Part shown: piece after piece, positions 8,217 through 34,762 of the stretch
Position numbering within the stretch: position 1 is the first letter of the stretch
Layout of the letters: each line of letters opens with the position of its first letter
IMG/VR virus record: IMGVR_UViG_3300042434_002493
Location: 1 to 64,000 of that record
DNA: 64,000 nt
DNA from: a virus
Direction: 5' to 3' (one strand)
The notes under the pieces: model-generated
Told to the model about the DNA's origin: nothing
Databases searched by the model: none
The model's input: only the letters and a program-made list of their open reading frames with translations
Made by a program: the position numbers and the translations under genes

Positions 8217-9476
8217 ATGCGCGTCGCAGCACAGCTCCGCCGCGTCTCCGATCACTCCATCGTCGCCGCGTTCGGCGAGGTCATGGCCGCACGCGGGCTG
8301 ATCCACCACCCCGAGAGCCTCCGCATGCTCGCCCACGGCGACATCGAGGCACTGAAGGCGGCCGAGGACCACGACGAGGGCGACGCCGAAGAGGACTTCC
8401 CCGAGGCCCACATGCGCGAAATGTGGGCGCGCGTCGAGGGCGAGTTCTCCGGCTACATCCAGCAGGTGCTCGACGACGTCGAGGGGATGATGGGCCGCGG
8501 CGAGCTGCACATGCCCATCGACCTCGACCGGGGCGAGCTGGACGCGGTGTGGCGACGCCTCGCGTTTCGTGCCGCCGGCCTGTTGACCCGCCTGGGGTTC
8601 GACGATCCGACGATGGGCCGCGTGGTGGAAGAAGACCTGCGCCGACGCGCCCCGTGGGCCGCGAGCTTCATCGAGCAAGCTTACCGCTTCGGCCTCGTTC
8701 ACCAGGCGGTCGCCCCCGAGGCGCCCATGAACGTCGCGTGGCAGGTGGCCAAGGCCCGCGAGATGCACCCTGTTGACCGCGCTGCCATCGCGCACCTCCG
8801 GGCGCACGCCGGGCAGTTTCTCCGCCCGGTGGCCTACGGCGTCATCGAGCAGGTCAACCAGCGGCTCCTCCAGGTGGACCGCGAGATCGTGCGTCGCCGG
8901 ACACTGGCCGCGCAGCGCGTCCACATCCACCCCGAGCGCCTCTCAGGCTTTCTCGCCGACCTCACCGGCGTGAAGGTGGACCGCGGCGACGGCACCCTGA
9001 TCTGGCAGGGCGGTTCGTGGGCGCGCGACTGGCGGCGCGTTGCCCGCACCGAGATGGCCTACGCCAGCAACGAGGGCCACTTGAGCGCGATGCTCCAGGC
9101 CCACCCGATCAACGACGGGTTGCCCGAGGGCGCACCTCTTCGAGTCCCGAAGGTACTGGTCTACAAGATCCCCCAGGCGACCCGGCGAGACGAACGGGGC
9201 AAGCTCGTTGCCCCCTGTACCCATTGCTTTCGACTCTGGCGCGCCGACGACGAGACGCCCCGCCTCTACCCGCTCGACGAGATCCTCGCGAACGGAGAGA
9301 ACGCCGGGCCCCCGCCGAAGAAAGCGAAGGACTGGACTGCGACCGTCGGACCCACCCATCCGAACGACCTCTGCGGCCCGCTCGTAACCTACGGGCCCGA
9401 AGCTGACAACCTGTTCCCCGGTTTCCGTTCCCAGCTCGCCGCGTTTGCCGGCAAAGGGTACGAGGGAGTCCCATGA
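8217..9476 (+). CDS. MuF / SPP1 gp7-like head morphogenesis protein
   Basis: RDWRRVARTEMAYASNEG, CTHC and GPTHPNDLC (HPxCxC variant); directly after the portal. Confidence 0.85.
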   Translation: MRVAAQLRRVSDHSIVAAFGEVMAARGLIHHPESLRMLAHGDIEALKAAEDHDEGDAEEDFPEAHMREMWARVEGEFSGYIQQVLDDVEGMMGRGELHMPIDLDRGELDAVWRRLAFRAAGLLTRLGFDDPTMGRVVEEDLRRRAPWAASFIEQAYRFGLVHQAVAPEAPMNVAWQVAKAREMHPVDRAAIAHLRAHAGQFLRPVAYGVIEQVNQRLLQVDREIVRRRTLAAQRVHIHPERLSGFLADLTGVKVDRGDGTLIWQGGSWARDWRRVARTEMAYASNEGHLSAMLQAHPINDGLPEGAPLRVPKVLVYKIPQATRRDERGKLVAPCTHCFRLWRADDETPRLYPLDEILANGENAGPPPKKAKDWTATVGPTHPNDLCGPLVTYGPEADNLFPGFRSQLAAFAGKGYEGVP

Positions 9477-12400
9477 GCACCGTCCGCAGCATCCTCGACA
9501 AGGTCCGTCTCATCCGCGCCCAGGTGGGCCAGCCCGAGGGCGCGAAGGCTATCGACAAGAAGGACACGGGCACTTTGTCGATGTTCGACATGCTCAGGGG
9601 TGGCGGCCCGGCCGGAGACCCGAGCCGGTCGGGCACGCTTCACGCGGAGACGCGGACGGACAAGATCGGACGCACCGAGAAGCGATGGGTTGCCGACGCC
9701 GCGATGCCCCAGGCCCAGAAGGACGCCATCGAACAAGCCAGCCAGGGCGCGGCGAAGCACGACAAGCAGGCCGACCTGCACAGGAGCGCGATTGACGCGT
9801 GGGGCGGACTCCGCACCGTCCAAGGTGCCCTGCACGCGAAGGCGCAACGCGCGCACCAGGTCGCCGCGGACGCGCACCGGAACAGCTTGAGCGAGCGCAG
9901 CCCAGACTACGTGCCCCCGGAGCAGGTGAAGCAGCGAGCCGAGTACGCCGAGCAGGTCACACAGGCCGCCGGACACATGGACCCGCAGGTACACCACGAA
10001 GAGCAAATGAACTACCACGGCAGGGAAGCCGAACGCCTCGCAAAGGCGAAGACGCCGAACCTCGCAGCCGTCGCCGCTCACATCCGCGCGCGCGACATGC
10101 ACGACAACGCGACCGACGCTTACCGACTGGAGTCAACGCCCGCCCGGCGCATGGAAGTGTCGAGCAAGGCGCGAGATGCGAGCGCCGCCGCGAAGCAGGC
10201 CACAGGACAGGACGGCGCAGCGCCCGCGGCGCAGCGGTACGACGCCATGCGTGACGCACAGGCGAAGGCCAGAGAGGCGAGCGACCAAGCGAGCAGGGTC
10301 GCGCCGCCCAACACCGGCGCAGCCGGCAAGGCGAAGCCCGGCAAGTCCGTGAAGTTGGGCGCGACCGCCGCGTCCGAATTTGACCTGCTGCGCGAGCTGC
10401 ACGAAGACCCGGACGGCCTGGAAGACGACGAGCGCGAGGCCATTGGCCACCTCGTCGAGCACCACGACCCTGACACTGGGCGTTTGCATCTCCCCGACGA
10501 TCCCGACGTGGCGGACAAGATGGCCGCGCACGTCGCGTCGATGGCATCGTCGTACAGCGACCAGATCGACGACCGGAGCGGTGAGGGCTCACACGCCGAG
10601 GGCCGAGGGCACGCCAAGCGGGCCATGACCGCGCTGGAGAAGTTGCGCGACACCCTCGACGCGCACGCAGCGGACCTCCGCGCCAAAGCGACAGCGGGCG
10701 CAGCCACTACGAAGAAGCAGGAGCACGAAGCCAAGGCCGCGATGCACAGAGCCGAGGCCGGCAAGCTCCCCGACGACGACGTTCGCGTGAAGCTGCACCA
10801 CGCCGCCGCCGACGAGCACGACCGCGCCGCGCGATGGCACGGTTCGACGCACATCAAGAACTGGGATCGCGCCGCCGCCATGACGGGCGAACGGGCGAAC
10901 GGCCTCAGTGCCGAGGTGGAGGCCACCGACGCTCGACTGAAGGCCAACGCAACCGCCGCTGCGGAGGCCAAGCTCAAGAGCGCGACCCACCCCAGCACGA
11001 AGGTCGCCGCAGAGCACGACGCCAAGGCCGCCGAGCACAAGGCCGCCGCCGCCAAGGCCGGGCGCAACAGTTCCGAGGAATCACAGCACCTCTACGCCGC
11101 CCACCTGCACAAGCAGACCGCCCACCTGCACCGGGAAGTCGCCGCCGGCCGAATGGGCGAGGCCAACGCCAAGGCCGCCAGTCTGGGCGCCAACGAGGCC
11201 AGCGAAATCGCGAACAGGACCAGCGCGCCGAGCATGACGCACCAGGAGGCCCAGGCCAAAGCCAGGGAGCACGAGCAGAAGGGCGAGCACTTCGGGACGA
11301 TCAACGGCGGGTATGGCGCTGCGATGTACCACGCGAAGGCCGCTCAGGCGTGGGCCGGAGCCGCGAAGATGCTTCGCGAGGGCTCTCTCGCGCCAGAGCA
11401 CGCCGCCGGCTACCTCGACCACGCCCAGCAGCACAGCGACAGGGCGGCGAAGGAGGAGGCCGAGACGCCGCACCGCATCAGAGCCCGCGAGGCCGCAGCC
11501 GTCCACGAGCACACGGCCAAGCAGCACACCAAGGCCGCCAACGAGGCGACGAAGACGGGCGAGAGATCGGCGCACCTCGAAGCCGCCAAGCTGCACACCC
11601 AGGCGGCCAGGGACGCCCACGGGTACAGCAACTCGACCTTCGATCCGAACGAGATCAGCAACCGCAAGGACTACGAGAGCAGCGTCGTCGCCGCACTGAA
11701 GCAGTCCGAGCACGCCAACACGCTCAGTGGCGCGAAGCCGGCTCAGGCCGCCGCCGAGCCGCAGAAGGCCCCGGTGGCAGCGAGCTTCGACGTCCAGAAG
11801 AACACCGGCCGGGAAACGGTCAACGGGCACCGCATCGGCAACTTCGGCGTCCACGACGACGCCCCCTTGCACGGAGGGCTCGCCACCGTGACGCACATCC
11901 CGACCGGATTGCGTGTCGCGAGCGATCTCTCCCCGGAGGATGGACTCGCGCTCGCCAAGCACCTACACGAGAAGGCCGGAGACGCGCACGGAACGGCAGA
12001 GTTCGGCACCCCGCTGAACAAGGATCACCCCGACAGCAAGCGCGTGCTCGACGCGCTCCAGAGCGCGACCGCGAAGCCCAAGCCGGCCGACGTGGCGAAG
12101 GCGATCCGCAACAGCGCCGCCGATCACCGGGCCCGGCAGGATGCCGCCGTGACCTACGCCGAGCGGGCAGAGACCCACCGAACCAAGGCGCGCGAGGCGA
12201 CCGACACGCGGGTCCGCGAGGCCCACAGCAAGGCCGCCGAGGCCCACGACAAGGCCGCCGTCGAGCTGCGCAAGTTCGCCGGCAACTGGTCTGCGACCCA
12301 CGACGCCGGCAAGGCGAAGCAAACCGCCGAAGACGCAGAGGCGCAGGCCCGACGAGACGCGACGGCCAAGCCGCCCGAGCCGAAGCCAGCCGCCGAGGCC

Positions 12401-12754
12401 AAGCCCGCCAAAGTCGAGCCGGTGGCGCGGGCCATGGAGGCGCTGCGCAAGATCCTGCCCCACCGCGACGCCGACCCGGAGGACCGCTACCGCGCCCGTT
12501 GGCACATCCCGAAGAAGGGTCACATGCACGCGACCTCCATCGAGAACCACCCCGAGATGCAGCGGGCCAAGGTGAGCCCCAGGCACATCGCCGATGCCGT
12601 CAAGCGCCTTCAGATGCGGGGGGAAGTCGAGCAGATGAACACGTCGGCCGCCGGTGGCGGCTACTCCGTGCGTCGCACGGGCGACGGCGGCGTAGATCCC
12701 ACCGTGGACCGACGCCGACGGGACGAAGAGATGGACCGCCTACGCTCATCGTGA
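9473..12754 (+). CDS. Ala/His-rich helical putative internal virion (cargo) protein with N-terminal 25-aa tag
   Basis: 1093-aa ORF coupled to MuF; EGAKA site, tag copy 1 (9617-9691) and many HxxxAxxH repeats. Confidence 0.75.
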   Translation: MSTVRSILDKVRLIRAQVGQPEGAKAIDKKDTGTLSMFDMLRGGGPAGDPSRSGTLHAETRTDKIGRTEKRWVADAAMPQAQKDAIEQASQGAAKHDKQADLHRSAIDAWGGLRTVQGALHAKAQRAHQVAADAHRNSLSERSPDYVPPEQVKQRAEYAEQVTQAAGHMDPQVHHEEQMNYHGREAERLAKAKTPNLAAVAAHIRARDMHDNATDAYRLESTPARRMEVSSKARDASAAAKQATGQDGAAPAAQRYDAMRDAQAKAREASDQASRVAPPNTGAAGKAKPGKSVKLGATAASEFDLLRELHEDPDGLEDDEREAIGHLVEHHDPDTGRLHLPDDPDVADKMAAHVASMASSYSDQIDDRSGEGSHAEGRGHAKRAMTALEKLRDTLDAHAADLRAKATAGAATTKKQEHEAKAAMHRAEAGKLPDDDVRVKLHHAAADEHDRAARWHGSTHIKNWDRAAAMTGERANGLSAEVEATDARLKANATAAAEAKLKSATHPSTKVAAEHDAKAAEHKAAAAKAGRNSSEESQHLYAAHLHKQTAHLHREVAAGRMGEANAKAASLGANEASEIANRTSAPSMTHQEAQAKAREHEQKGEHFGTINGGYGAAMYHAKAAQAWAGAAKMLREGSLAPEHAAGYLDHAQQHSDRAAKEEAETPHRIRAREAAAVHEHTAKQHTKAANEATKTGERSAHLEAAKLHTQAARDAHGYSNSTFDPNEISNRKDYESSVVAALKQSEHANTLSGAKPAQAAAEPQKAPVAASFDVQKNTGRETVNGHRIGNFGVHDDAPLHGGLATVTHIPTGLRVASDLSPEDGLALAKHLHEKAGDAHGTAEFGTPLNKDHPDSKRVLDALQSATAKPKPADVAKAIRNSAADHRARQDAAVTYAERAETHRTKAREATDTRVREAHSKAAEAHDKAAVELRKFAGNWSATHDAGKAKQTAEDAEAQARRDATAKPPEPKPAAEAKPAKVEPVARAMEALRKILPHRDADPEDRYRARWHIPKKGHMHATSIENHPEMQRAKVSPRHIADAVKRLQMRGEVEQMNTSAAGGGYSVRRTGDGGVDPTVDRRRRDEEMDRLRSS

Positions 12755-12760
12755 GCGCGA

Positions 12761-12789
12761 TTGACCAGCCCTCGAAACGTCGTCAGGTT
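12761..12789 (+). promoter_or_regulatory. Putative promoter for a leaderless transcript
   Basis: TTGACC-N17-CAGGTT-N6-ATG(12796). Confidence 0.4.
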
Positions 12790-12795
12790 ACACGC

Positions 12796-13971
12796 ATGAA
12801 GTACGAGATCGTTTTCCGCCAAACGTTCAAGGACATGGGCGAGGATCGGACCCACGGTGGGCACCTGCACGCCGAGCAGCGCACAGACAGCCGCGGCCGG
12901 AACATCACCCGATGGGTCCGCACACCCGGCTCAGACGGGGGCGGCGTGCTGCGGTCGGCCAAGAACCGCGAGTCGCTCGGCGACTTCCACGACGACGCGT
13001 TGCACGCTGCCCGGCACAACATCACCGGCCAGATGCGCGCGCACTCGATGAGATCGACGCCCGATCCTCATCGAGTGCGAGCTGCGGGGCACGCGCTCGA
13101 CGCCATCGACAACGAGCAGGCGAATCGCGGACGTGCCGCCGGGCAAAGCCGAGGGTGGATCGACGCCGCGCCCGCGTTGCCGAAGGACACGCAGAGCGCG
13201 CACCAGCGCGCACCAGGCGTCTACAAGCCCGGCCGCGCCGCGTTCCACGACGCCATCGTCAAGAAGTTCATGCACGGCAAGGCCCCGGCCGCGCCTGGCG
13301 AGAAGCCGCACGCCCTCGTGATGATGGGCGGGCCCGGGTCGGGCAAGAGCAGCATCCTCAAGCAGCTCGGCATCGATCTGGACAGCCACGTCCACATCGA
13401 CCCGGACGAGATCAAGCAGCACATCCCCGAGTACCACGTCGCGCGCGCCCACAACGCGAAGAACGCCGCGTTCATGGCCCACGAGGAGAGCAGCGACGTC
13501 GCGAAGAAGCTCCGCGACCATGCCATCCAGAATCGCCACCACGTCCTGATCGACGGCACCGGCGCCAACGGCCCGAAGCACAAGGCGATGGTCGAGGACC
13601 TGAAACAGCGCGGCTACCACGTCACGCTGGCCATGCCGCACATCAGCAAGGAGGAGGGCTTGAGCCGCGTGGCGAAGCGCGCCGAGGGCAACGGCCGATT
13701 CGTCCCGAGCGATGTTGTGGGCGGCGCCTACGACAAGATCCCGGGCAACTTCCACAAGGTCGCCGCCGCCGCAGACGACGCCTACCTCTTCGACAACCAC
13801 GAGAAGTCCCCCCGCCTCATGTACAAAAAGGAGGGCGGCCAGGAGCGCCAGGGGCCGGACGTTCACACCGATCTCCACGCTCAGTTCCTCGCGGCACACG
13901 GCCGAGGCGACGAGGGCGGTAAAGCACTACGCGCGAGCCGCGCGTCTGGGCGGCATCACAGTAGGCACTGA
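12796..13971 (+). CDS. Zeta-toxin (PezT-like) P-loop kinase with N-terminal 25-aa tag
   Basis: MGGPGSGKS, HIDPDEIK, HEES, VLIDGT, GRFVP and YLFDN motifs. Alternative GTG start at 12751. The upstream 10834-12750 part of the tracked ORF is a shadow frame. Confidence 0.88.
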   Translation: MKYEIVFRQTFKDMGEDRTHGGHLHAEQRTDSRGRNITRWVRTPGSDGGGVLRSAKNRESLGDFHDDALHAARHNITGQMRAHSMRSTPDPHRVRAAGHALDAIDNEQANRGRAAGQSRGWIDAAPALPKDTQSAHQRAPGVYKPGRAAFHDAIVKKFMHGKAPAAPGEKPHALVMMGGPGSGKSSILKQLGIDLDSHVHIDPDEIKQHIPEYHVARAHNAKNAAFMAHEESSDVAKKLRDHAIQNRHHVLIDGTGANGPKHKAMVEDLKQRGYHVTLAMPHISKEEGLSRVAKRAEGNGRFVPSDVVGGAYDKIPGNFHKVAAAADDAYLFDNHEKSPRLMYKKEGGQERQGPDVHTDLHAQFLAAHGRGDEGGKALRASRASGRHHSRH

Positions 13972-14016
13972 AGCGCGTTGCTGGCGCCTGGCCCCAGCCG
14001 GGAGTAGAGTTGAGCC

Positions 14017-14220
14017 ATGCCGAAACCCACCACAGCAATCGACGGATTCCGAAGCAAAATCCTGGCAGCCTTCGCCAAGGGTCACGCGGCCCACGAGGCC
14101 GAGCGCGAGGCCCTGAAGCGGTCTCCCAAGCGTTACCGGGCCGGCGAAGGGATCGACGAGTCCTGCACGCTCAACGACAGCCACATCGGGCCCATCGGAG
14201 AGAACGCCGCCGGCAATTGA
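14017..14220 (+). CDS. Small hypothetical protein (possible partner or antitoxin of the zeta kinase)
   Basis: Fills the gap between large genes; TAGAGT lies 6 nt upstream of the ATG. Confidence 0.5.
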   Translation: MPKPTTAIDGFRSKILAAFAKGHAAHEAEREALKRSPKRYRAGEGIDESCTLNDSHIGPIGENAAGN

Positions 14221-14245: not shown

Positions 14246-14263
14246 CGCGGCGAGGTCTGCCCC

Positions 14264-17200
14264 ATGTTTTTCATCCGCATTGAAGGTCTGAAGGCCGAGC
14301 AACTGGCGCTTTTCGGCGGGGCAACACCCGCCTCGAAGCCCCGCCCGACGTCGGCGCCGGCCGGGCAGCTCGACCTCTTCGGAGGCGACCCGACCCACGG
14401 CGGCCACCTGGTCGAGCGCGTGATCTTCACCAAGGCGGGGCACCAGCAGACCTTCCACGTTCTGCCGGTCGAGGCGCCCAAGGCGAAGCGCAAGGCCAAG
14501 CCCGCCATCGGGCCCGACCTGTTCGCCTGGGCAGACCAGGCCACGCCGAGCCAGGTGGCGAGCGCCCTGGTGGACGCGCACCAGCAGGCGAAGCGTCCCG
14601 AGGCGACACCCGAGGACATCGAGCGCCGCGACCAGCTCCTCACGGCCGCGCAGGCACACCAGTCCAACCGGCAGAGCGAGTCGCCCGAGGTCGCGCCGCT
14701 GGCCGATCCGACACCGACTGCAACGCCGGCCGGCACCACGCCCGAAGATGCGCCGGCCGGTACGATCTTCCACGGATACACCTCCGATTACAGCACCCAG
14801 ATCCAGTGGGCGAAACGCGAGGACGGCCAGTGGTTCCGCCGCGGGCAGGACAAGACGCCGCGTGGATACCGCTGGAGCGGGTGGGTCAAGGGCGGCCCGC
14901 CGAACGAGCGCGCGAGCATCCACGGAAGCGGCAACGTAGGGCCCACGCGCATGGCCCGGCTTCCCCAGGAGGGGGGAGCCGACGAGGCCATGGCCGGGGC
15001 GAAGATCATCCCCAACCGCCACACCAAGACCGGCGAGGCGTTGTGGACGGTCCAACTTCAGGACCGTGTCAGCAGCGAGACCTACCAGGAGATCCTCGCC
15101 CACGCGAAGGGCCTGGGGGGCCGCTACAGCAGCTTCAGGGGCAACGGCGCGATCCCCGGCTTCATCTTCAAGACCGAGGACGCCGCCAGAGCGTTCACCG
15201 GCCAGCAGGCCGAAGAGGAGGAGCAGGAGGCCACCGAGCCGGCCGCGGTCAACCCTCCGGTTTCCCCGGAGAGTTCCCCGGCCGAGACGCCCGAGGCCAA
15301 GCCCGATGCCGTCACGCCGACCGCCGACCAGATCCGCAAGGACCCGACCGACGGTGGGCGCCTCCAACCTCGCAAGATCACCGGCAAGGACGGCGTCACC
15401 CGGACGTACTACGTCTCCCAGGACGTCGAGGGCGACGTGGCGGCCAAGCTCGCCGCCAATCCCGACTTCCAGCAGTCGGCCAAGGTCAACCACCGCGACA
15501 ACCTGGTGTTCGCGATCAAGAAGACGGTCGAGGACATGGCCGCCGACGAGGCCGTGGCCCGCAACGAGCTTGGGCACGCCGACGAGCACGCGAAGGGGTG
15601 GGGCCTGTTCTACTTCGACGGCCTCGACCAGATCGGACGCCAGAACTTTTTGGAGGCCGTCGCGAGCAAGCTCGCCCAGAGCGTGCGCGACCAGGAGCCG
15701 GCCAACCTCCCGAGCCGCGAGGCAGAGCCGGCGCAACTACCCGACCCGGTCGCAGAGCCCGCGGAGACCGTCAAGTACCTGGAGAGCGCGCCCGCAGGCG
15801 CCCAGGTGACGCTGGCCCACGACGACGGGCGGCACGTCTGGGAGAAGGGTGAGAAGGGGTGGCGCCCCGAGGGCGCCCCGGATGGCCCGCCCGTCACCGA
15901 CGAGGGCCTGGCGCGCGCCGCCCAGGCCGGCGCCGCGGAGATCGTGGACGGCCCTGCACCGGCGGATGCCGCCCCGCGGCGCACGCTCCAGGAATCCCTG
16001 GAGAGTTTCCGGCAGGGGCTCACGTTGACCGAGGACCAGGCCAAGGGAGACTGGACCCCCCAGCGCATGAGCCGCGCCCACCTGGTAACGAGCATCCTCG
16101 ACCACTTGTGGAGCGACAAGACCGGGCCCAGCGGAGAGCCGACCGACGACATGCAGGCCGCCATGACCCAGGCGGCCGAGGCCGAGGCCGACCGCATCAT
16201 CGCCGAGACGAAGAAGCCCAGGGTCGCGAAGCCCGAGGCTACTGCCAGCGGGCCCAAGGCCAACACCCAGAGCTTCGGCCGCGACCTCACCCCGAAGCAG
16301 CGCAAGGACGCCAACAGCTCCGCCGTCGAGATCATCCAGCGCGCCGTCAGCCAGGGCCGCGAGCTGACCCAGAAGGAGATGGACGAGGTCGCGCTCTACT
16401 CCGGCCGGGGTGGGATCGGCGACTCGCTCAACCAGTACTTCACGCGCCCGGACATCGCCGCGTCCATGTGGGATCTCCTCGCCCATCACGGCCTCGCGCC
16501 GGACGCAAAGGTGCTTGAGCCCGCGTGCGGTTCGGGCGTGTTTATGCAGACCGCCCCCGAGGGCGTGACCATGACCGCCGTGGAGATCGACCCCGAGGTG
16601 GCCCTGGTTGCGTCGAGCCTGCACGGAGCCCGGCACACGGTCCACGCCCAGAGCTTCGAGGAGTTCGCGGTGGCCCGCGAGCGAGGGGTGGGCGACCGCT
16701 TCGACGCGGTCATCACGAACGCGCCGTTCTGCACACGCACCGGCGACGGGGCCCGCATCCACAAGCCCGAGTACACGAGCGCCGACGCCTATTTCGTGGA
16801 CACGGCGCTCGACCAGGTGAAGGAGGGCGGTCTCGTTGCGATGATCGTCCACCGCGGCGTCATGTCGAACGACGGCATGCAGGAGTTCCGGCGCCGAATC
16901 GGAGATCGCGCCGAGCTGGTCGATGCGTTCCGGTTGCCCGTCGAGGCGTTCAAGCACGCCGACACCACCGTCGTTTCCGACGTGATCATCCTGCGGAAGC
17001 GCCCCGAGGTGGTCGCGACCGCGCTCGCCCGCGGCGGCGAGGAAGTCGGGCGAGCCCTCGGGGTGAACGACGAAGACCTCATCTACGGCCGCTGGTTCGA
17101 CGACAAGCCCGACCGCGTCCTGGGGACGGTCGGCAAGGACTGGCGCGGTTCGGATCTCGTCGAGGGCAGCGCCGACGCATGCGCGCCGCTCATCCGCGCC

Positions 17201-21391: not shown

Positions 21392-21708
21392 CCCCCACGA
21401 AGGAGTCCGCGACCATCCTGGTGCAGATGCTTCAGACGCACCCGGCCTACTACCTGAACTTCGGGCCCTACTGGTGGATCGTGAAGCGGTGGTTGCTGCG
21501 CCTGGGGTTTACGCGCGCCAACACCCGCCACCTGGGAACGTACACGGACCCGCAGGCCCGCGCCTGGTACACCGACCGGCCGTTTCTCAGCGCCATCGAG
21601 CAGGCGTTCGCCTACCAGGCCGAGCGCGCCCAGAACTGCCCCGGCTCGCCGTTCTGCCAGACGCCAGACGGTGAGGACTACATCCTGGAAGACCAGGACG
21701 CCGAATGA
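21388..21708 (+). CDS. Hypothetical protein
   Basis: ATGA overlaps on both sides; aromatic-rich 106-aa product. Confidence 0.7.
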   Translation: MTPTKESATILVQMLQTHPAYYLNFGPYWWIVKRWLLRLGFTRANTRHLGTYTDPQARAWYTDRPFLSAIEQAFAYQAERAQNCPGSPFCQTPDGEDYILEDQDAE

Positions 21709-26259: not shown

Positions 26260-26265
26260 GGCCGC

Positions 26266-29200
26266 ATGGCCCAGCCCGCGCAGCTCAACATTTTCGGCGG
26301 TCAAGATCCCATCCGCAACGGCGGCGATCCTTCGCACGGCGGGGCCCTTCACCAGGAGCGGCGCACCGACAGCCGAGGAAGGACCGAGACGAAGTGGGTC
26401 CGTGACCCCAACGACCGACGCACCGTGGACTTGGAGAAGCTGATCGCACTCAAGGAAATGGGCCGCCGGGTGGACCGGCCGACCCTGTTCCGGTGGGCAG
26501 CCGGCCGGGTGAAGCACGACCCGGACACCTGGACGGCCTACCGCAAGTCCACAGCCGAGGAGACCCGCCAGGAAGGCGAGCAAGAACTGCGTCGCCGGTA
26601 CGCCTGGCATCAGACGTTCGGCGAGCACACGCCGTTTCACCCCGCAGCGATGAGCGATCACATCACCGGCAGCTTCGAGGCGGAGGCCGCGAAGGCCGTC
26701 ACGTTCTACCTCGCCGTGATCTTCGCCGAGGGTGGCAAGGCCGGCCCCATCGCCAACCGGCCGGGCCTGGTATTCGACTACATGAGCCGCCGTTGGAAGC
26801 GGGTCGAGCCCCACGAGGAGGGCGTTCACCTCGACGAAGAGGCCGGGCAGGCTCACGTCGTCCCTTGGAAGCCGAAGCGCGACAAGAATGAGACGATGAG
26901 CCAGGAGGACTGGCAGGGCTTCATCGACGACGCGAACGAGCCACTCCACGAGCGGGCCGCGAAAATGAACGCCACACTGGCGCACTACAAGGCGGGGCAC
27001 CTGGAGTTCAAGAACCCCAGGGGCGACGGCCACGCGGTCATCATCCCGGATGCGAGCGAGCCGGGCCGCTGGCGTTACTCCGAGTACGACAAGAGTGGTT
27101 TCTCATCGCACACGACTCACGACACCCCAATGCAGGCCGCCGCCGCCGCCGGGGAGGCCGGTTTCACCGAGCCGGCGCCCGGCAGCCTGGATCGGCTTTC
27201 GCAGACCGAGGAGTGGGATCGCGGGACTCGCTCCGCCAAGATCAACCAGCTTGGCGGAGAACTGAACTGGAAGGGGCACCACGAGGCCGACCTGGCGGTG
27301 CGCAATCACTACGCCCGCCACGGCTGGAGCGCCGAAGCCTACCAGCGCATCATGCAGCCCGACGTCCTGGCCGCCGTCCGCGCCGGCCAGGTGCATCCCG
27401 AACTGCTCAAGGCCATCGCCGATCACCGCGAGGGTTTCAAGGCCGCGCCGAAGCTAGACTTCGGCGAGACGGCCCCGTCCGGCGAGCGGTGGATTACCGT
27501 CCGCCCCAACGGACCCGACGCCAAGGGTGTCCCGGTCCTGGTGCAGGTCCACCCCCACAACCCGCGCCAGGGCCACATCATCGGCGGCGCCGGGGGCAAG
27601 ATGAACCTGCGCCGGCTCAACCTCAAGACCCCGGAGGAGTACCGGGCCGCCGCCGCCGCGCGACGCAAGAACCGACGCAAGAGCGAGAGCACGCAGGTTG
27701 ACACAGGCCAGAGGGCCGCGCTCGAAGAGGTCAAGGGCGAGCACCAACAGCGCCGCAGGGCCGCCGCCGCCCAGGTACTCCGCCACGCCGGGCATCACGA
27801 GCTGGCCGACAAGATCGCCGCCGGCCCGCTGGCAGGCCAGGAGAGCGAGCACAAGGAGGCCGTCGCCGACGGCTACCGCAAGGTTCGCGTGCTCATGGCC
27901 AACGCCCGCCGAACGCTCGCCCAGGACACCGACGCCCGCGAGGCCGCAGGTCTGGGGGAGCTTCCGGCGACGAGCGGAGACGGGGGAATCGGGGCGAGCG
28001 ACATCGCCGGCAGGCAGGTCATGCAGGGGGGCCTCGACTACAAGCGCGACCGGGCCGCCCTGAGCGACCAACAGGCCGATCTCGCCCGCGCCCAGGCCCT
28101 TCGCTCGCGCCTGGACGCCGATCTGCAACACGGCGAGCCCATCGACGCGCTCACCACAGCGCAGCGGTACGCCCGCGCCGCGAACCTTACCCACCGCGAC
28201 ATCGAGGCCGCGGGCCCCGTCGAGATCGCCGCGTTCGCCCGGCTGGCCAGCCGGCGCCTGAAAGCGTTCCGGCGGCTCCAGGAGGCCGTCACCGAGGCCG
28301 GCGGGGACAACACCGCGCCCACCATGCCCGACGAGGCTCGCGAGGCGATGGACGACATGGCCGCGGTCGTCAGCGGCAGCGGGCAGGATGCCATCGACGC
28401 CATGACCGATCCCGCGCGGAACGAAACCGCGCGCAAGGGACTACAGGCCGCCGTGGACCACGGCCTCATGGACCCGCAGCGCGAGCGGGACATGACGGCC
28501 CGTATCGAGCAGGCGCGCCGACAGTCCGCCGGGGCTCCCGAGCTTTCGCAGCTCAACCAGGAGCACGTCGAGTCTCTCCCGGCCCGCGCCATCGCCATCG
28601 TGGCCAACGACGCCGCGCACGCGATCCGCCGCATGCGCACCGCGGCCCCCGAGGATCTGCGCAAGCTCGCCGAGCAGGTGGGCGAGGAGGTGCCGACCAT
28701 CAAGGGCGCCGCCGATGCGCTCGGCGAAGAGGCCCTGATCTCCGGCGAAGCCACCGACGCACAGCGCCGCTCGTTCTTGCGCCAGGCGCTCGCGTCCGGC
28801 GTGCTCACCGGCGACGCCACACCGCCGAAGGCTGCCGCCGATCCGTCCCTCGAAGTGAACGACGGGGCAAAGGCCCGCGCGATCTTCGAGGCCGGGTTGA
28901 AGGTCAAGGGTCTCGACAAGGAGGCCCGGCGCCGCCGCAACGCCATCATGGCCGGAGACCTGGCGGGCGCCGCCTCGCAACAGTGGGAGGCCCCCCGCGG
29001 CGGAGCCAACGACCCGACGCAGCAGCTCGCCGACCACCCTTCGACCGAGATGGTCGCCGCGGTGCAAGGCGAGGTCCGCACCCAGCGCGCCCGCGCGTTT
29101 CTGGGGCAGGTCAATCAGACCTACCAGGACATCGGCCAGATGCTCGACGAGGACCAGGACGCGGCGCACGCCGATCTGGGCCGCCACATGAGCCGGGGCA

Positions 29201-32200
29201 GCTTCGACGCGGTCAACCACCACGCTCAAGAGATCCTGCGCAGCGCGACCATCGACCGCAACGTCGTAGACCTCCTCGGTTCGGAGGGGGCCGCACAACT
29301 CCTCGCTTGGCAGATCCGTCAGACGCACCCGGAGCAGGCCGAGGCATTGACGCAGGCGGTCGGCGACTATCACCTGCGCCTCCAGGACACCCACATCCCC
29401 GAGGCGATGGACACCTCGCGCGACGCCTACGAGGCCGCCCACGAGGTTCACCAGGGCATGCAGGAGCAGGGCGACCTGCGCGAGTGGCAGGCGCTCAACC
29501 GCCAGCGCATCGAGCACCTCGACCAGTCGCGGCAAACGCTGGGCCGGACCTTGGGTTACCTGGAAACGTCCGCGGCTTTGCACGCCGCGATGCTTTCGCC
29601 GGCAGCGCACCCGATCCGCGTCTCCGCCGGGCCGGTCGATGCGACGCAGCTCGCAGCCCACGCGCGCGCCGCCGGACTCGGAGACGACGACTTCCACATC
29701 GAGCACGACGGCAAGAACGGGTGGTTGACGGTGCAGCCGGCAGCGTTCGGCAAACTTGTCCGCCCGGTCGATGCCGAAGAGGTCCGCCTCGACCGTGACA
29801 TGGAGGCCATCCGCACGGGCCAGCAGGACGACCCGACGTGGCGCCCGGCCGGGTTTATGCAGCGCACCGACGTCCGCCCCGAGCAGCGTTTCAAGGGTGA
29901 GGTCCCGCAGAACGCGCAGCCCTTCGACTACGGACTCGCCGAGCACGCGAACATGCACGAGGCGATGGGCACCTACATCGCCCAGCGCGTCCACGACGGG
30001 TGGCGGCCCGTGGACATCATGCGCGATCTCCAGAACACCGGCGAGCACATGGGCGGCATCGCCGCGGGGGTCGGCGAGGCCGACCTCCAGAGCCCGCAGG
30101 TGCAGGCGTGGCAGGAGTTGCACCCCGAGCCGCCGAAGACCGTGGCAGCCCAGGACGACGGGCAGGCGCGAATGCCCTGGGACCCCGAGCCCGAGCCCGG
30201 ACCCAACCCCGCCCACGCCAGTTGGGAGCAGGACCGGCGCGAGATCGCGGCCAAGGGCAAGCTTGCCGCGTTCCACGAGGCTTTGGCCGCCCACATGCCA
30301 TCGAGAGCGCAGGACAAGAATCAGAGCCTCCAGCAGGCCGAGGAGCACGCCCCGCACTTCATGGAGCTGGCCAGGCAGCACGCCGAGCGGGTGGGCACAG
30401 CGGGGACGTTGCACCACCAGCAACTCGACCCGACGTTGGCGAATGACCTCGCCTTTCGGGTGCTGGGCCGGCACCCGGCCGCGGTGGGCGCGTGGAAGCC
30501 CGTCGAACAGTTGGGCCACCACGAGCGCGCCGCTTTGCGCGAGTCGTTCTACCGCTACTTCCACAGCCGACAGGGGGAGATGCCGCAGGAGCTTCACCCC
30601 GAGGCCGTCATGGCAAAGTGGGCGAGCAAGAACCCGGAGCCGGCCCGCGACAACACCGCGCAGGGCGATCTCCTCGGTTTCGGCAGTCTCCCCGGCATGG
30701 GGGGATTCGGCGCGCCGTCGCCGGAGGACATCGAAGCCGCCGAGGCCGAAGCTGGCCACGCGCACGAGCGATGGGAACAAGCCCTCGTTGAGCACGAGCG
30801 CGCCCAGGCGGGCATCGCCGATCCCAAGGCCGCGTTTCTCTCCCAGGCGAAAGAGCACGTCGAAAGCGTCGCCCGCCACCTGGCCAAGACGACGAAGACG
30901 CACAACGACGACGCCCACCCCGAGGTCGCCGCGGCCCGGGAACGACACAGGCACGCGCAGGACGTGGCCGCGTTGCGCGCCGAGCCCGACGCGGCCACGC
31001 CCGACGCGCTCCGCGCAGCGCACGGAGCCTACCGATCCGCCACAGGTGCGGCTCAGAGCGCCGTCGTGCAGTTGGCGCGAGCCGAAGACGCGCGGAGCCG
31101 CTCCGCCGCGCAGGCGTTCGATGCCCGTCACCACGACGCGAGCCCGGAGTGGAAGGCGTGGCGCAAGGAGCGCGACGAAGCCGAGCGCGCCGCACACCGG
31201 GCAGCCTCGCGCTACGACGCCCCCGACTGGAACACCTACGTCGCCAGCCACGGCGGCGCGCCGCAGGCGTACCAGGCGCTTCAGGATTTCGTGCGCTCCC
31301 GGTTCGTGCAGGAGTTCCGCACGCTCTACCAGGACCACGCCCAGAGCCCGCTCCAGATCGGCGTGCAGGCGGTGGCCGGCGCCGCAGGCCACCGCCTCGC
31401 CTTCGACCCAGACTGGCGCGACCGTGTGCGCCGCACCGCCAACGCAGCCGGCGCGACCGCGCGCACACGCGCAGCCGGCGGGCGGTTCAGTTCGGACCCG
31501 TACAAGGAGGCGCGCGAGCGGTTCCAGGCCCAGGCCCGCGAGATGGCCAATCGACAGACCAGCAACGTGGGCGAGGTCAATCCCGATCCGCGGCGAGCGC
31601 CCGACCTGGACGAGCGATACACCCTCGGGCAGGCCGCCGAGGGCCAGCTCGCCAACATCGTCGGGCAGCACGCGAGCATCATCGACCCGAGGCAGACGTT
31701 CGAGGCTCGCTCCGCTGACTTTTCGGGGCCGGGCGCCAAGCGGCAGCGCGCGATCAAGGCGTGGAAGCGCAGCCGCAAGATCGGGATGTTCCTCGGGACG
31801 GGCCAGGGCAAGACGACCGTCGCGTTCGGCACCTTCGCCGACCTCAAAGGCGAGGGCCGGGTCCAGCGGGGCGTGTTCGCCGTGCCCAGCATCGTGCAGG
31901 GCCAGTTCGGAGGCGAGGCGTTGTCCTTTGTGGACCCCGCCCACATGCGCTGGCACGCGAAGCCCGGCGAGGGCAAGGCCGAGCGCATGGCCGCCTACGC
32001 CGACCCGGAGAAGCACGTTGTCGTCGTGACGCACCAGGCGCTTCGCGACGACGTCACCGAGATGGTCGCGAAGCACCTCGGGATGAGCCGCGAGCAGGTC
32101 GCCGCACACATGACGGACGGCGAGGTGCAAGCCCAGGCGCCGGAGGTCCCCCACCTCGACAAGATGCGCGACCTGGCGAGGATCACGCCCGAGCAGATGC

Positions 32201-34761
32201 TCCGAGACAGCGACTACGACAAGGCGATGCGCAACGCCTACGTCGGCGGCGCGAGCAGCCGCACTACGCCCGCCCAGGTGCCGAGCTACCCGGTGGGCAC
32301 CTGGAAGGTGGACGACACCTTCCGCGGCTTGTACGGGTCCGACGTCGAGCACCTCCAGGAGTTCGACCCCGACGATCTTGTCGCGACGGAGAACAACGTC
32401 GCCACGAACGCAGAGGGCCGCGGCACCGACGCCGACCGCTATGCCGAGTGGGCCCGCAGCGGAGAGCACGGGGAGCCGCCCCCGATCCGCGTCGTCCAGG
32501 CCGAGGACGGCAGCATGCGCATCACCGACGGACACCGTCGCCACGCCGCGGCGAAGAAGAACGGCCAGAAGATCAAGGCGTGGGTCAGCTATGCAGCGCA
32601 CACCGGGCGCCTCGACAGCAACGGCAAACCCATCGTGACCGGACTGACGCACGAGATGGCAATCCACCGAGCCCGAGAAGCCGGCGACCCCGCCGAGGCG
32701 TGGCATGCCCAGACGTTCCCGGACCTCGCGGAGAAGATGCAGACGGCCGACGTGCAGCCGGTCAAGGGGGCCGCCGCGCGCACCGTCCAGCCGTGGACAG
32801 AGGACGAGACCGACCAGCACGTCAGGGCAGCCCTCACGGCCCACGAGGCCCACGGACTCCTCGACTACATGGCCGTGGACGAGGGGCACGTCGCCTTGAA
32901 CCGAAAGGGCAAGCAGGACAGCCACCTCGCCCGCGTCATCGACAGCCTGGGCCGCTTGGCGAAGTACGCCGGCTACATGACCGGGACGCCCGTCAAGAAC
33001 GACACCAGCGAGCTGTACGACCAGCTCCGCAAGGTCGCGCCCCACAAGTACGGCGACGGGGAGGGTAAGACCAGCCTCCAGGAGTTCACCCGGCGCTACG
33101 GGACCGATCCGACGACCGCCGGGCCCGCCCTGCGCACAGAGATGCGGCGTCACGCCTTCATGGCCGAGGCGCCCATGCCCTTCGAGCCGAACTACCACAC
33201 CGACAAGCTCGACCCCACCCCCGAGCAGTCGCGAGACCTCGACGACGTGCATCGGTCATACGAGCGGGTGGCAGCCGCCCGCCGGGCCGGTACGCTCAAC
33301 ATCGAGGCCGCCCGCGCGCTCGCCCCGAGCGCCTTCGCCAGCGTCGCGCCGGGGGACGAAGAGGCCGCCCGCGCCGTGGCCGAGAAGGTCCACCGCAGCC
33401 CGGTGACGTTCCGCGAGGCCGCGCTCAACCGCCACATCAACATGCACGCCCAGGGCGCCAAGCTCGCCCACCTCGACCAGTTGATCGGAGGCTACCGCTC
33501 GCAGCCGCTCCCCAGGGGCGCCCGCGAGAGCGAGGCCGCCTACCAGGCACGCACCGCCGCGGGCGACACGCACCGCCGCGCCGGAGTCATCTTCGCCCAC
33601 AACCACGAGGCCGTGGCCCAGATCGCCGAGCACCTCAAAGCCAAGGGGCACCGCGTCGAGACCATCACCGGCAAGGACACCGGGCAGCTCAAGACCAGGA
33701 AGCGCGAGGCGTTCGACAGGGGCGAGCACGACATCCTCATCCTCAGCGACGCCGGAGCCACCGGCGCGAACCTTCAGTCGCGGGCGAGTTGGATCATCAA
33801 CCACGACACCCCGGCGACCTACCACACCTGGAAGCAACGCAACGCGCGCATCCTCCGCGTGGGGCAGCGCATGGACCGCCCCGACGTCCACACGCTCCAG
33901 GTAGACCACCCCTGGGAGCACGACGCCGCCGCGCGCATGGAGCGCAAGCGCAGCCTGCACGACCCCCTGTACGCCGAGGACGACGAGAGCCAGGACGAGG
34001 GCGGACTCGCCCACATCATCCGCCAACACCTGCACGAGGCCGCTTCGCCGCTCACGCCGCAGTCCTACGGGCCGCCGGCCCGCGAGACGCCCACGTCGGC
34101 GCCCGCGCGTGCCGAGCCTCACACGTTCCACGGCAGCAAAGAACAGTGGGATGCGTTGCCCGTCGCCTACCACACGACCGTGGACGAGGCCGGCGTGCGC
34201 GCTCACGGGTTCAAGCCAGACGCCTTCGCCGAGCAAGGGTACGGCGGGGGGCGCCAGCCTGGCGCGGTGTGGGCACACCACGGGCCGGGAGCCGCAGAGA
34301 GAGCGCAGGCGATGGCCGACTACATGAACGACGTGCAGGACATCGCCAGGCACCCCGAGCCGATGAAGCACGCACGCGAGAAGTTGCAACAGCTCGCCGC
34401 GAGAACACCCGGCGCAACCCCGCGAGACATGGACAACGCCACCTCGACGGGCGATTTTTTGATGAAGTACGGCGACAGCCACGCGTCCGAGTTCCCGCAC
34501 CTGCAACCAAAGACAGACGCCCAACGCGCGGCCATGTGGTACGGCCACGCGCGCGGCTCTGCAAACGGTGGGCGACTGGGGGGGCAGAATGCGCCCGTGA
34601 CACCCGAGGCCGTGGATCGTGCAGCCGCGCGCACGTCGCGCGCGTCCGTCGTACAGATCCGCCACACCCCCATTGGAAGCCAGAAGGGCGTCGGGATCGA
34701 GCACAACAGCGACCGCGCTATCGAGCCCAATCACATATTCCTGCGGCACGGGGGCGGGTAG
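26266..34761 (+). CDS. Giant 2831-aa polyvalent protein: tag, SNF2/SF2 helicase with inserted ParB/Srx domain, possible C-terminal ADP-ribosyltransferase-like domain
   Basis: GTGQGKT (31795), VDEGH (32875), MTGTPVKN, GATGANLQ, QRNARILRVGQ; PPIRV...ITDGHRRHAA (ParB); YHTT...GF...GYG...GAVW near the C-terminus. Confidence 0.85.
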   Translation: MAQPAQLNIFGGQDPIRNGGDPSHGGALHQERRTDSRGRTETKWVRDPNDRRTVDLEKLIALKEMGRRVDRPTLFRWAAGRVKHDPDTWTAYRKSTAEETRQEGEQELRRRYAWHQTFGEHTPFHPAAMSDHITGSFEAEAAKAVTFYLAVIFAEGGKAGPIANRPGLVFDYMSRRWKRVEPHEEGVHLDEEAGQAHVVPWKPKRDKNETMSQEDWQGFIDDANEPLHERAAKMNATLAHYKAGHLEFKNPRGDGHAVIIPDASEPGRWRYSEYDKSGFSSHTTHDTPMQAAAAAGEAGFTEPAPGSLDRLSQTEEWDRGTRSAKINQLGGELNWKGHHEADLAVRNHYARHGWSAEAYQRIMQPDVLAAVRAGQVHPELLKAIADHREGFKAAPKLDFGETAPSGERWITVRPNGPDAKGVPVLVQVHPHNPRQGHIIGGAGGKMNLRRLNLKTPEEYRAAAAARRKNRRKSESTQVDTGQRAALEEVKGEHQQRRRAAAAQVLRHAGHHELADKIAAGPLAGQESEHKEAVADGYRKVRVLMANARRTLAQDTDAREAAGLGELPATSGDGGIGASDIAGRQVMQGGLDYKRDRAALSDQQADLARAQALRSRLDADLQHGEPIDALTTAQRYARAANLTHRDIEAAGPVEIAAFARLASRRLKAFRRLQEAVTEAGGDNTAPTMPDEAREAMDDMAAVVSGSGQDAIDAMTDPARNETARKGLQAAVDHGLMDPQRERDMTARIEQARRQSAGAPELSQLNQEHVESLPARAIAIVANDAAHAIRRMRTAAPEDLRKLAEQVGEEVPTIKGAADALGEEALISGEATDAQRRSFLRQALASGVLTGDATPPKAAADPSLEVNDGAKARAIFEAGLKVKGLDKEARRRRNAIMAGDLAGAASQQWEAPRGGANDPTQQLADHPSTEMVAAVQGEVRTQRARAFLGQVNQTYQDIGQMLDEDQDAAHADLGRHMSRGSFDAVNHHAQEILRSATIDRNVVDLLGSEGAAQLLAWQIRQTHPEQAEALTQAVGDYHLRLQDTHIPEAMDTSRDAYEAAHEVHQGMQEQGDLREWQALNRQRIEHLDQSRQTLGRTLGYLETSAALHAAMLSPAAHPIRVSAGPVDATQLAAHARAAGLGDDDFHIEHDGKNGWLTVQPAAFGKLVRPVDAEEVRLDRDMEAIRTGQQDDPTWRPAGFMQRTDVRPEQRFKGEVPQNAQPFDYGLAEHANMHEAMGTYIAQRVHDGWRPVDIMRDLQNTGEHMGGIAAGVGEADLQSPQVQAWQELHPEPPKTVAAQDDGQARMPWDPEPEPGPNPAHASWEQDRREIAAKGKLAAFHEALAAHMPSRAQDKNQSLQQAEEHAPHFMELARQHAERVGTAGTLHHQQLDPTLANDLAFRVLGRHPAAVGAWKPVEQLGHHERAALRESFYRYFHSRQGEMPQELHPEAVMAKWASKNPEPARDNTAQGDLLGFGSLPGMGGFGAPSPEDIEAAEAEAGHAHERWEQALVEHERAQAGIADPKAAFLSQAKEHVESVARHLAKTTKTHNDDAHPEVAAARERHRHAQDVAALRAEPDAATPDALRAAHGAYRSATGAAQSAVVQLARAEDARSRSAAQAFDARHHDASPEWKAWRKERDEAERAAHRAASRYDAPDWNTYVASHGGAPQAYQALQDFVRSRFVQEFRTLYQDHAQSPLQIGVQAVAGAAGHRLAFDPDWRDRVRRTANAAGATARTRAAGGRFSSDPYKEARERFQAQAREMANRQTSNVGEVNPDPRRAPDLDERYTLGQAAEGQLANIVGQHASIIDPRQTFEARSADFSGPGAKRQRAIKAWKRSRKIGMFLGTGQGKTTVAFGTFADLKGEGRVQRGVFAVPSIVQGQFGGEALSFVDPAHMRWHAKPGEGKAERMAAYADPEKHVVVVTHQALRDDVTEMVAKHLGMSREQVAAHMTDGEVQAQAPEVPHLDKMRDLARITPEQMLRDSDYDKAMRNAYVGGASSRTTPAQVPSYPVGTWKVDDTFRGLYGSDVEHLQEFDPDDLVATENNVATNAEGRGTDADRYAEWARSGEHGEPPPIRVVQAEDGSMRITDGHRRHAAAKKNGQKIKAWVSYAAHTGRLDSNGKPIVTGLTHEMAIHRAREAGDPAEAWHAQTFPDLAEKMQTADVQPVKGAAARTVQPWTEDETDQHVRAALTAHEAHGLLDYMAVDEGHVALNRKGKQDSHLARVIDSLGRLAKYAGYMTGTPVKNDTSELYDQLRKVAPHKYGDGEGKTSLQEFTRRYGTDPTTAGPALRTEMRRHAFMAEAPMPFEPNYHTDKLDPTPEQSRDLDDVHRSYERVAAARRAGTLNIEAARALAPSAFASVAPGDEEAARAVAEKVHRSPVTFREAALNRHINMHAQGAKLAHLDQLIGGYRSQPLPRGARESEAAYQARTAAGDTHRRAGVIFAHNHEAVAQIAEHLKAKGHRVETITGKDTGQLKTRKREAFDRGEHDILILSDAGATGANLQSRASWIINHDTPATYHTWKQRNARILRVGQRMDRPDVHTLQVDHPWEHDAAARMERKRSLHDPLYAEDDESQDEGGLAHIIRQHLHEAASPLTPQSYGPPARETPTSAPARAEPHTFHGSKEQWDALPVAYHTTVDEAGVRAHGFKPDAFAEQGYGGGRQPGAVWAHHGPGAAERAQAMADYMNDVQDIARHPEPMKHAREKLQQLAARTPGATPRDMDNATSTGDFLMKYGDSHASEFPHLQPKTDAQRAAMWYGHARGSANGGRLGGQNAPVTPEAVDRAAARTSRASVVQIRHTPIGSQKGVGIEHNSDRAIEPNHIFLRHGGG

Positions 34762-34762
34762 G

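Follow-up and report, generated by a model that had tools for sequence, protein, structure and literature searches.

To our knowledge, the choice of the proteins that are packed into a phage head and injected is understood for a few model phages only (T4, P1 and N4), each of which uses an idiosyncratic signal. Encapsulin cargo-loading peptides are short common peptides which bring unrelated enzymes into a shell of the HK97 fold. In T4, the capsid-targeting sequence (CTS) is a short N-terminal signal beside a head-protease site, which is found on the injected internal proteins and Alt and is portable to foreign proteins (PMC9024508). P1 DarB is loaded by way of its N-terminus, the first 30 residues of which are enough to bring a reporter into the capsid, and according to the authors the N-termini of the Dar proteins have no common consensus (PMC9024508). 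DarA-Hdf is located on the inner capsid wall, touches the DNA and leaves with it, and the N-terminus of DarA is cut by the head protease (PMC12810830). Another class is the polyvalent proteins, described in their survey as large proteins with disparate effector domains, the genes of which lie among the late ones for the virion. They are predicted to be packaged and then injected, are also common on plasmids and conjugative elements, and have been proposed to be processed by zincin metallopeptidases (Iyer, Burroughs, Anand, de Souza, Aravind 2017; PMC5512222). Here, we describe a tag of 25 amino acids (aa) that is repeated eight times in five proteins, A to E, encoded among the head genes of the IMG/VR provirus record IMGVR_UViG_3300042434_002493. 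The whole stretch of DNA analysed (the window) is the first 64 kb of this 80,435-b record, with 70% guanine plus cytosine (G+C), and a sequencing-run look-up found the same DNA in lake-water metagenomes (DNA runs of lake water only). Judged from the sequences and their gene context, the most likely reading is that the tag marks enzymes taken into the capsid and delivered together with the DNA.

The genes are arranged in the order large terminase (phrog_675), portal, a 419-aa gene (MuF-like), A to E, three small open reading frames (ORFs), a 343-aa gene (the putative protease), a scaffold-like gene and the capsid protein gene. A to E are all on the + strand and consecutive, apart from a 106-aa gene between C and D. 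A first-pass annotation of the window had listed eight 25-aa copies of the tag, and translation from the eight starts, which fall in three + frames, reproduces each quoted 25-mer exactly. When the entire 80,435-b record was searched with a 42-column profile built from the copies, the same eight came back at expect values (E) of 3e-23 to 5e-19, and no further copy at E<=10. All eight are in A to E, which bears out the claim that the tag is confined to genes between MuF and the protease. The mean identity among the copies is 58% for nucleotides and 51% for amino acids, and the same codon is used for 56% of the identical residues. Because of this low nucleotide identity and the diverged codons, the copies point to an old set kept by selection on the peptide, not to a recent duplication of DNA. 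The tag-bearing proteins had been called otherwise unrelated, which is correct, since the one match that BLASTP gives among A to E outside the tag region is a weak one between the helicases of C and E (E 4e-4). The description as five giant proteins holds in part: all five carry the tag, but B is a protein of only 391 aa and cannot be called giant.

The tag also occurs outside this phage. A word-indexed protein search with the tag returned seven proteins. The hidden Markov model search of metagenome proteins that had been proposed beforehand was carried out exhaustively with HMMER over 1.84 billion cluster representatives (E<=1e-3) and gave 61 matches, of which 9 are unrelated repeat proteins (SpaA, MucBP and PKD neighbours) covering half the profile. 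About 50 protein clusters, from high-G+C and low-G+C phages, carry the tag. In 59 aligned instances, D1, G6, L8 and G18 are near-invariant, W24 is present in 43, positions 7, 16, 19 and 23 are usually basic, and the consensus is D-P-S-H-G-G-K/R-L-x-x-x-x-x-T-D-K-x-G-x-x-x-T-x-W-V. The low-G+C form is rich in lysine, reads G-D-P-S-H-G-G-K-L-V-K-K-x-I-T-D-K-x-G-x-K-x-T-x-W-V and follows L-I-K-A or I-x-K-G. The cargo of 57 tag proteins is diverse, including NUDIX (6), InPase, ADP-ribosyl exotoxin-type and topoisomerase IB domains (4 each), LPD1, helicase C-terminal and 2H phosphoesterase domains (3 each), SNF2, ART-PolyVal, PAPS reductase and methylases (1-2 each), and zeta toxin, PBECR3, RadC, Acb1-like and Mom domains (one each); to none of the 57 is a Phage_Mu_F Pfam domain fused. 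The statement that the tag belongs to no named family was upheld. The eight excised copies matched no Pfam family at E<=10, no Pfam or NCBIfam model lay over the tag in the whole window proteins, Pfam had none in the 57 relatives apart from one sub-threshold Bflower_2 match, and a full-text literature search for the motif strings returned nothing. The Bflower_2 match (the petal of a '5-fold beta-flower', E 3e-4) covers the low-G+C tag of one relative, P0060, at residues 316-350, and is maybe a mere likeness between hairpins. When tag peptides (35 aa) were compared by tblastn with 72,556 plasmids, no match was obtained; small tag proteins and peptides compared with 50,697 cultured phages gave one weak match only, in the Bordetella phage PHB04, which is real on inspection.

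Flank alignments and the N-termini of relatives place the tag as the core of a header cassette of ~45-60 aa. The cassette begins with a hydrophobic strand, followed by E-[GA]-x-K-[AS], a hydrophobic x-F-[GD] motif (of which Q-L-x-L-F-G-G and T-x-S-M-F-D are frequent forms), a variable linker, D-P-x-H-G-G-x-L, and a hairpin ending in R-W-V. The E-[GA]-x-K-[AS] motif is found at 22 sites in the portal, MuF-like, A to E, protease and scaffold proteins, where ~1.7 are expected, and at none in twelve other proteins, including the terminase, the capsid protein, the Ulx-like protein (the 106-aa gene) and the products of downstream genes. The sites are located at the C-terminus of the portal, at the N-terminus of the MuF-like protein (8346-8360), at both ends of the protease, in the scaffold (five) and inside A to E; the third tag copy, for instance, has EGLKA (14282-14296) before it and EAPKA (14471-14485) after it. 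The motif is probably a site cut by the head protease after the Lys. Since the distribution of the sites resembles that of prohead-protease substrates, it provides independent, indirect evidence that A to E lie inside the prohead. The capsid protein has a conserved G-G-E-x-x-L-K-A-M near residue 26, the core G-G-E..L of which is kept in all three lineages described below; it looks like a propeptide cut, as a near-variant of E-[GA]-x-K-[AS].

The coupling of the predicted cut and the tag extends to the family. Among 56 family tags, 32 (57%) are preceded by E-x-x-K-[AGS] at a distance of no more than 45 residues, where the background is 10%, another 13 have a looser hydrophobic-x-K-[AGS] upstream, and 3 are at a natural N-terminus. 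The predicted cut (after K) is thus upstream of the tag in 45 of the 56, and the tag would therefore be kept at the N-terminus of the mature fragments. The spacing between the cut site and the tag is 1-2 residues in many low-G+C members and mostly 7-9 in high-G+C members, with a range of 1-40. Between the predicted cut and the tag lie Q-L-x-L-F pentapeptides, which in the window are QLALF (14300-14314) and QLDLF (14366-14380) before the third copy, QMRLF (25035-25049) and QLNIF (26281-26295), and which in the family include QLDLF, QLSLF and QLGLF. The motif Q-[LMI]-x-[LMI]-F is present within 30 residues upstream of 13 of the 56 tags, against a background of 1%; the enrichment is restricted to high-G+C members, and the pentapeptide is absent from all low-G+C members, where the hairpin is kept. 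These pentapeptides match the published bacterial sliding-clamp-binding consensus (the Dalrymple/Wijffels motif, QL[SD]LF class). Autocleavage at D-P, by analogy with the NPTH site of FlhB/YscU, was considered and dropped, as 16 of the 59 instances have a residue other than Pro at position 2.

Two other header types were found in the same proteins, both later headers following predicted cut sites. The second type, G-P-I-A-N-x-P-G-L-x-F-D-x-x-S-R-R-W-K-R-V, is present in E at 26743-26830 (GPIANRPGLVFD..RRWKRV) and, truncated, in D at 26067-26110. The third, G-E-R-W-I-T-V-R-P-N-G..IIGGAGGK, is present in E at 27481-27560. The GERWITVRPNG header also starts the PHB04 helicase gp025 and a 1902-aa Myxococcota prophage protein. 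In a close relative of the window, G001, the RelA/SpoT-like gene (L044:3158-4222, - strand) carries a hybrid header, part second type and part tag hairpin (MQITVIFGEGLK DTGGIANRPGLVLTTITDRAGRKTRRWT), in which I-A-N-R-P-G-L is joined to a tag-like hairpin. This suggests that the related headers form a family.

The genomic context of the tag was followed in relatives. Degenerate DNA patterns searched in IMG/VR, GTDB genomes and JGI metagenomes gave G001, two Bacteroidota-type phages and one Myxococcota metagenome-assembled genome (MAG); four further IMG/VR matches to the patterns are chance hits. The context was counted in six contigs of three lineages, namely the window, G001, two Myxococcota MAG contigs and the two Bacteroidota-type phages, and every tag in them lies between a portal/MuF-like gene and the protease-scaffold-capsid genes, the capsid protein being of one family, phrog_752. 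G001, whose capsid protein is 90% identical to that of the window, has seven tags in syntenic genes. In the Myxococcota MAG, one tag gene is upstream of protease-, scaffold- and capsid-like genes, and another comes just after the portal and MuF-like genes. The two Bacteroidota-type phages (36-37% G+C) have one tag each, in a NUDIX polyprotein immediately upstream of the head-maturation protease. In one of them the protease is fused to a scaffold domain, and a phrog_752 capsid protein comes after the protease in the phage for which the following gene was examined. The comparison of the window with G001 supports the claim that the tag is a portable unit on unrelated cargo, for modules are swapped and reshuffled between the two. 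Protein A is 38% identical overall and 76% in the tag; position B is occupied by a zeta toxin in the window and by the RelA/SpoT-like gene with its own header in G001; and the modules of D are reordered at breakpoints that coincide with K-A sites, the DIDHGG module taking first place in the window but fourth place in G001.

A similar layout is present in cultured phages. The Bordetella phage vB_BbrM_PHB04 (record 26262-39176) encodes, in the same order as the window, a portal, gp034 and other small cargo, a DarB-like protein (33% identical to C across 1552 aa), an Ulx-like protein and an E-like helicase. Its cargo N-termini consist of a hydrophobic strand, K-A and then a short hairpin. The RelA/SpoT-like gp034, next to the portal, reads ..FFKA..ANRAGLTRKQIVDRTGRKQTKWV and is matched by the tag profile (E 2e-6 in a set of 11 proteins). 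The Pseudomonas phage Dolphis (record 83718-89137) has the same portal-cargo layout, with a hydrophobic strand, K-A/G and then another hairpin type. Most headers of PHB04 and Dolphis are H/Q-V-x-G-Y-T-R/K-x-D-G-T-x-V hairpins without the DPxHGG cap. No virion proteomics for PHB04 or Dolphis was found in the literature.

The tag had been described as a beta-hairpin, and modelling agrees. AlphaFold2, given the N-terminal 55 residues of E and a 19-row alignment, predicts a two-stranded hairpin (pLDDT, the predicted local distance difference test, 76-88 there and 67 overall), with strands at tag positions 8-14 and 20-26 (E residues 28-34 and 40-46). Foldseek of this model against the PDB matched generic hairpins only (E>1). 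The MuF-like protein and the capsid protein were chosen as co-fold partners because they are conserved between the lineages (E 1e-14 and 8e-6, respectively) and the scaffolds are not. The co-fold of the tag (55 aa, 19-row alignment) with MuF-like residues 150-419 and the capsid protein scored 0.00, without controls, which speaks neither for nor against binding.

Compared with P1, the locus has DarB and Ulx homologues (C and the 106-aa gene) in the P1 order, the Ulx-like gene being directly downstream of the DarB-like C, as in darB-ulx, and beside the portal gene. By BLASTP, C matches P1 DarB over its methylase and helicase parts (E 3e-39, 5e-34 and 4e-24), and relative to DarB it has an extra, tag-bearing N-terminal extension of ~680 aa. 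No homologues of DarA, Hdf, DdrA or DdrB were found among A to E at E<=0.01 (BLASTP against P1 proteins), and the tag profile scored zero bits or below against DarB, DarA, Hdf, DdrA, DdrB and Ulx. Unlike the Dar system, one conserved tag is present here on five cargo proteins and repeated inside polyproteins. The T4 CTS differs in that it has ~10 residues of unrelated sequence, lies upstream of a cut after Glu and is removed, whereas the hairpin here is repeated internally, lies downstream of the predicted Lys-Ala/Ser cut and would be retained. Encapsulin peptides are terminal and extended and bind the shell protomer directly; they are not processed by a protease, form no hairpin and are unlike the tag in sequence. 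With the polyvalent proteins, A to E share their position among the late head genes of a portal-terminase phage, domains such as InPase, PAPS reductase, methylase-helicase and zeta toxin, and, in tag-bearing relatives, LPD1, ART-PolyVal and PBECR3. The survey (PMC5512222) catalogues domains (LPD1-40 and others), without a hairpin header or a cassette with a head-protease site. The locus resembles the P1 and T4 capsid-targeting systems in its presumed working and is of the polyvalent-protein kind. It differs in having a consensus hairpin common across phyla, located downstream of a predicted cut and presumably retained, and recurring inside polyproteins, a recurrence that implies processing by the head protease.

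The explanation that we tentatively prefer, at a confidence only a little short of even, is that the hairpin is a virion-trafficking label, which docks cargo on a conserved interior component of the head and stays on each fragment. The header cassette would start the modules of proteins packed into the capsid, and the hairpin would dock them during procapsid formation. The head protease would then cut the polyproteins at the K-[AS] sites, upstream of the hairpin, which would stay on each mature fragment and keep it positioned until ejection, and the cargo fragments would be delivered with the phage DNA. Such a label is favored because the cargo proteins have a route in common, not a target. 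Capsid loading by the tag is plausible by analogy, because the tagged genes sit in the head module and DarB offers a precedent in P1. We infer the cleavage at K-[AS] sites, the packaging, the docking role and the receptor from sequence. Several points weigh against the label. The tag would be retained after the upstream cut, while the T4 CTS is removed, and a pure loading signal would seem to need neither retention nor three repeats in one polyprotein, as in D. The predicted D fragment 357-552, the InPase piece, has no tag, and other fragments start with different short headers, so that the tag is not the sole header. The net charge of the window's eight tags is merely 0 to +2, support is weak for what the protease and the MuF-like gene are taken to be, and the context comes from six contigs and three lineages only, ~45 other tag clusters (Logan/ENA singletons, on contigs of 3-90 kb) being outside the count. 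As to the receptor, binding of the hairpin to the acidic cluster of the scaffold was judged weak, because scaffolds vary between lineages while the tag is conserved, and the tags are barely basic. It is possible, though doubtful, that the header is a general portable label for loading and delivery, read by a conserved head component (the MuF-like protein, the capsid wall or the portal) throughout a widespread head lineage of Actinobacteria-like, Myxococcota, Bacteroidota and Proteobacteria phages. In that case, whatever protein is joined to a cut site and a hairpin would be packed, set free by the head protease and then injected.

The header may instead act after cleavage, either by leading the fragment out through the portal and tail or by serving as an address on the host side. 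In the latter version, Q-L-x-L-F would dock on the host sliding clamp and the hairpin would contact DNA or the clamp, so that the enzymes act on incoming or host DNA. A cut upstream of a retained tag means that a post-cleavage role (anchoring, exit or host targeting) fits at least as well as loading alone, and the tag does follow a predicted cut or a natural N-terminus in nearly all cases. Moreover, E after Met removal starts A-Q-P-A-Q-L-N-I-F-G-G, which resembles the ends predicted for C and the third D module after cutting and argues for the mature N-terminal module as the form that functions; the enrichment of the clamp-like pentapeptide and the usually basic tag positions point the same way. 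We regard this explanation as a serious rival, though less likely than the label. Against it, the low-G+C members without Q-L-x-L-F keep the hairpin, whose role therefore cannot depend on the pentapeptide, the unrelated cargo proteins have the virion route in common and not a target, the window tags are weakly basic, and the tag is missing from the plasmids searched, where polyvalent proteins are common (PMC5512222). The tight coupling of site and tag, and the recurrence of the cassette at module junctions, would also be expected if the hairpin recruited the head protease to the adjacent K-[AS] bond and thereby directed the cutting of giant polyproteins to module boundaries. This is improbable, as many predicted sites have no tag (in the scaffold, the portal, the protease and before InPase), E bears its tag at a natural N-terminus without a site to cut, and the spacing varies widely. 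Equally improbable is a passive junction, a stable hairpin linker inherited at gene fusion and merely separating domains; the shuffling of modules as units and the lack of a partner found agree with it, but the tag is strongly conserved across phyla, far above the neighboring linkers, and stands at the very N-terminus of single-domain proteins (B and the relative P0035). A chance or low-complexity match, or a part of a named domain of unrelated function, is largely excluded and has a very small probability. The nine repeat proteins with generic hairpins among the profile matches, and the Bflower_2 match over one tag, are what could be said for it, against per-copy E of 1e-19 to 1e-23, 59 full-length instances with conserved D1, G6, L8, G18 and W24, and the lack of any matching Pfam or NCBIfam model.

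One recognizable cassette heads dozens of unrelated enzymes of counter-defence and toxin type across distant phage lineages. If it is a sorting signal, it would give a sequence rule to predict injected effectors in metagenomes, a handle on the receptor inside the head, and a compact tag to load chosen proteins into phage particles; a general label, if true, would be a consensus signal of a kind absent from P1 and T4. Even if its role is post-cleavage, the cassette would be an uncatalogued building block of polyvalent proteins, and it points to polyprotein processing by the head protease instead of the metallopeptidases proposed earlier. Cultured phages of the same architecture (Bordetella PHB04, Pseudomonas Dolphis and Morganella Mecenats66) allow direct testing.

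Table 1. Tag copies, cargo genes and flanking head genes in the window.
Feature	Position	Strand	Description
Tag copy 1	9617..9691	+	Protein A, residue 49; DPSRSG...RWV; exact translation, profile E 1.6e-21
Tag copy 2	12844..12918	+	Protein B (zeta-toxin kinase), residue 17; translation and profile
Tag copy 3	14387..14461	+	Protein C, residue 42 (start 14264); divergent subtype LVERVIFTKAGH...; translation and profile
Tag copy 4	15341..15415	+	Protein C, residue 360; divergent subtype, TYYV end; translation and profile
Tag copy 5	21819..21893	+	Protein D, residue 39; EAGKA (21747-21761) 20 residues before; translation and profile
Tag copy 6	23418..23492	+	Protein D, residue 572; preceded by EGGKA (23349-23363); translation and profile
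Tag copy 7	25053..25127	+	Protein D, residue 1117; preceded by EASKA (25014-25028) and QMRLF (25035-25049); translation and profile
Tag copy 8	26326..26400	+	Protein E, residue 21; preceded by QLNIF (26281-26295); translation, profile, AlphaFold2 hairpin
Cargo A	9473..12754	+	1093 aa, Ala/Lys/His-rich; without family match
Cargo B	12796..13971	+	391 aa; tag and zeta-toxin-type kinase; C-terminal EGGKA 13912-13926
Cargo C	14264..21391	+	~2375 aa; N6 DNA methylase and SNF2 helicase (Pfam, BLASTP)
Ulx-like gene	21388..21708	+	106 aa; phrog_1629, E 4e-11; 32% identity to P1 Ulx, E 3e-8
Cargo D	21705..26234	+	1509-aa polyprotein; three tags, six E[GA]xK[AS] sites
Cargo E	26266..34761	+	2831 aa; superfamily 2 (SF2) helicase; tag and two other header types
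Portal	6365..8215	+	phrog_11117; C-terminal EAGKS 8129-8143
MuF-like head-morphogenesis gene	8217..9476	+	419 aa; adjoins tagged cargo in Myxococcota and Bacteroidota phages too
Probable prohead protease	35643..36674	+	343 aa; from position and motifs; EAFKA 35745-35759 and EGTKA 36432-36446 near its two ends
Probable scaffold	36689..37498	+	270-294 aa; Pro-rich linker, acidic cluster, five E[GA]xK[AS] sites (36749-37489)
Major capsid protein	37537..39024	+	phrog_752; conserved N-terminal G-G-E-x-x-L-K-A-M

The cargo proteins include several-domain proteins of disparate activity. By Pfam, C has N6_Mtase, SNF2 and Helicase_C, and its start at 14264 is favored over 14234 when relatives are compared. 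D has InPase at residues 372-494 (PF18823, E 3e-31) and a PAPS-reductase-like domain (PAPS_reduct) at 979-1050, while B has Zeta_toxin (PF06414) at residues 165-334 (E 1e-31). Protein A had no usable match in the ESM Atlas.

The names given to the flanking genes in the first-pass annotation were supported for the portal, by its PHROG family; the MuF-like protein had no Pfam, PHROG or NCBIfam match of its own, and the protease was assigned from position and motifs only. The MuF-like protein is 50% identical to the product of the gene after the portal in the Myxococcota MAG and 25% identical to a Bacteroidota-phage protein, with which it has the motifs C-x-H-C and T-H-P-x-x-x-C in common. Two Bacteroidota homologues (BLASTP E 1e-14 and 3e-10 to the MuF-like protein) match phrog_758 (E 8e-5) and phrog_115 (E 0.02), and the labels 'head morphogenesis' (phrog_758) and 'minor head protein' thus reach the window protein via homologues only; no Pfam domains were found in 20 homologues. 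The putative protease is 44% identical to its Myxococcota counterpart, with D-x-x-x-E, N-H and S-x-G-G invariant, and it had no significant family or PDB match. In hhalign against phrog_1028-type proteases the probability was <4%, yet D-x-EGE, N-H and S-x-G align. Its AlphaFold2 model from a 2-row alignment (pLDDT 37) is unusable.

The window and the Myxococcota prophage (L039:12278-13114) encode scaffold-like proteins that have no BLAST similarity to each other and the same layout, which consists of an N-terminal helix, a G-x-K-A-M site, a Pro/Gly/Ala-rich linker, a strongly acidic cluster ending in another site and a helical C-terminal part. No tape-measure-sized gene or tail sheath was recognized among the window ORFs up to ~61 kb. 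One of the three small ORFs between cargo E and the putative protease (34764-35558) encodes a CxxC zinc ribbon of the FmdB type (TIGR02605, E 1e-10). A 609-aa protein encoded downstream of the head genes (40640-42469) reaches 37 bits with the Pfam Decapeptide repeat region, below the cut-off of 45 bits.

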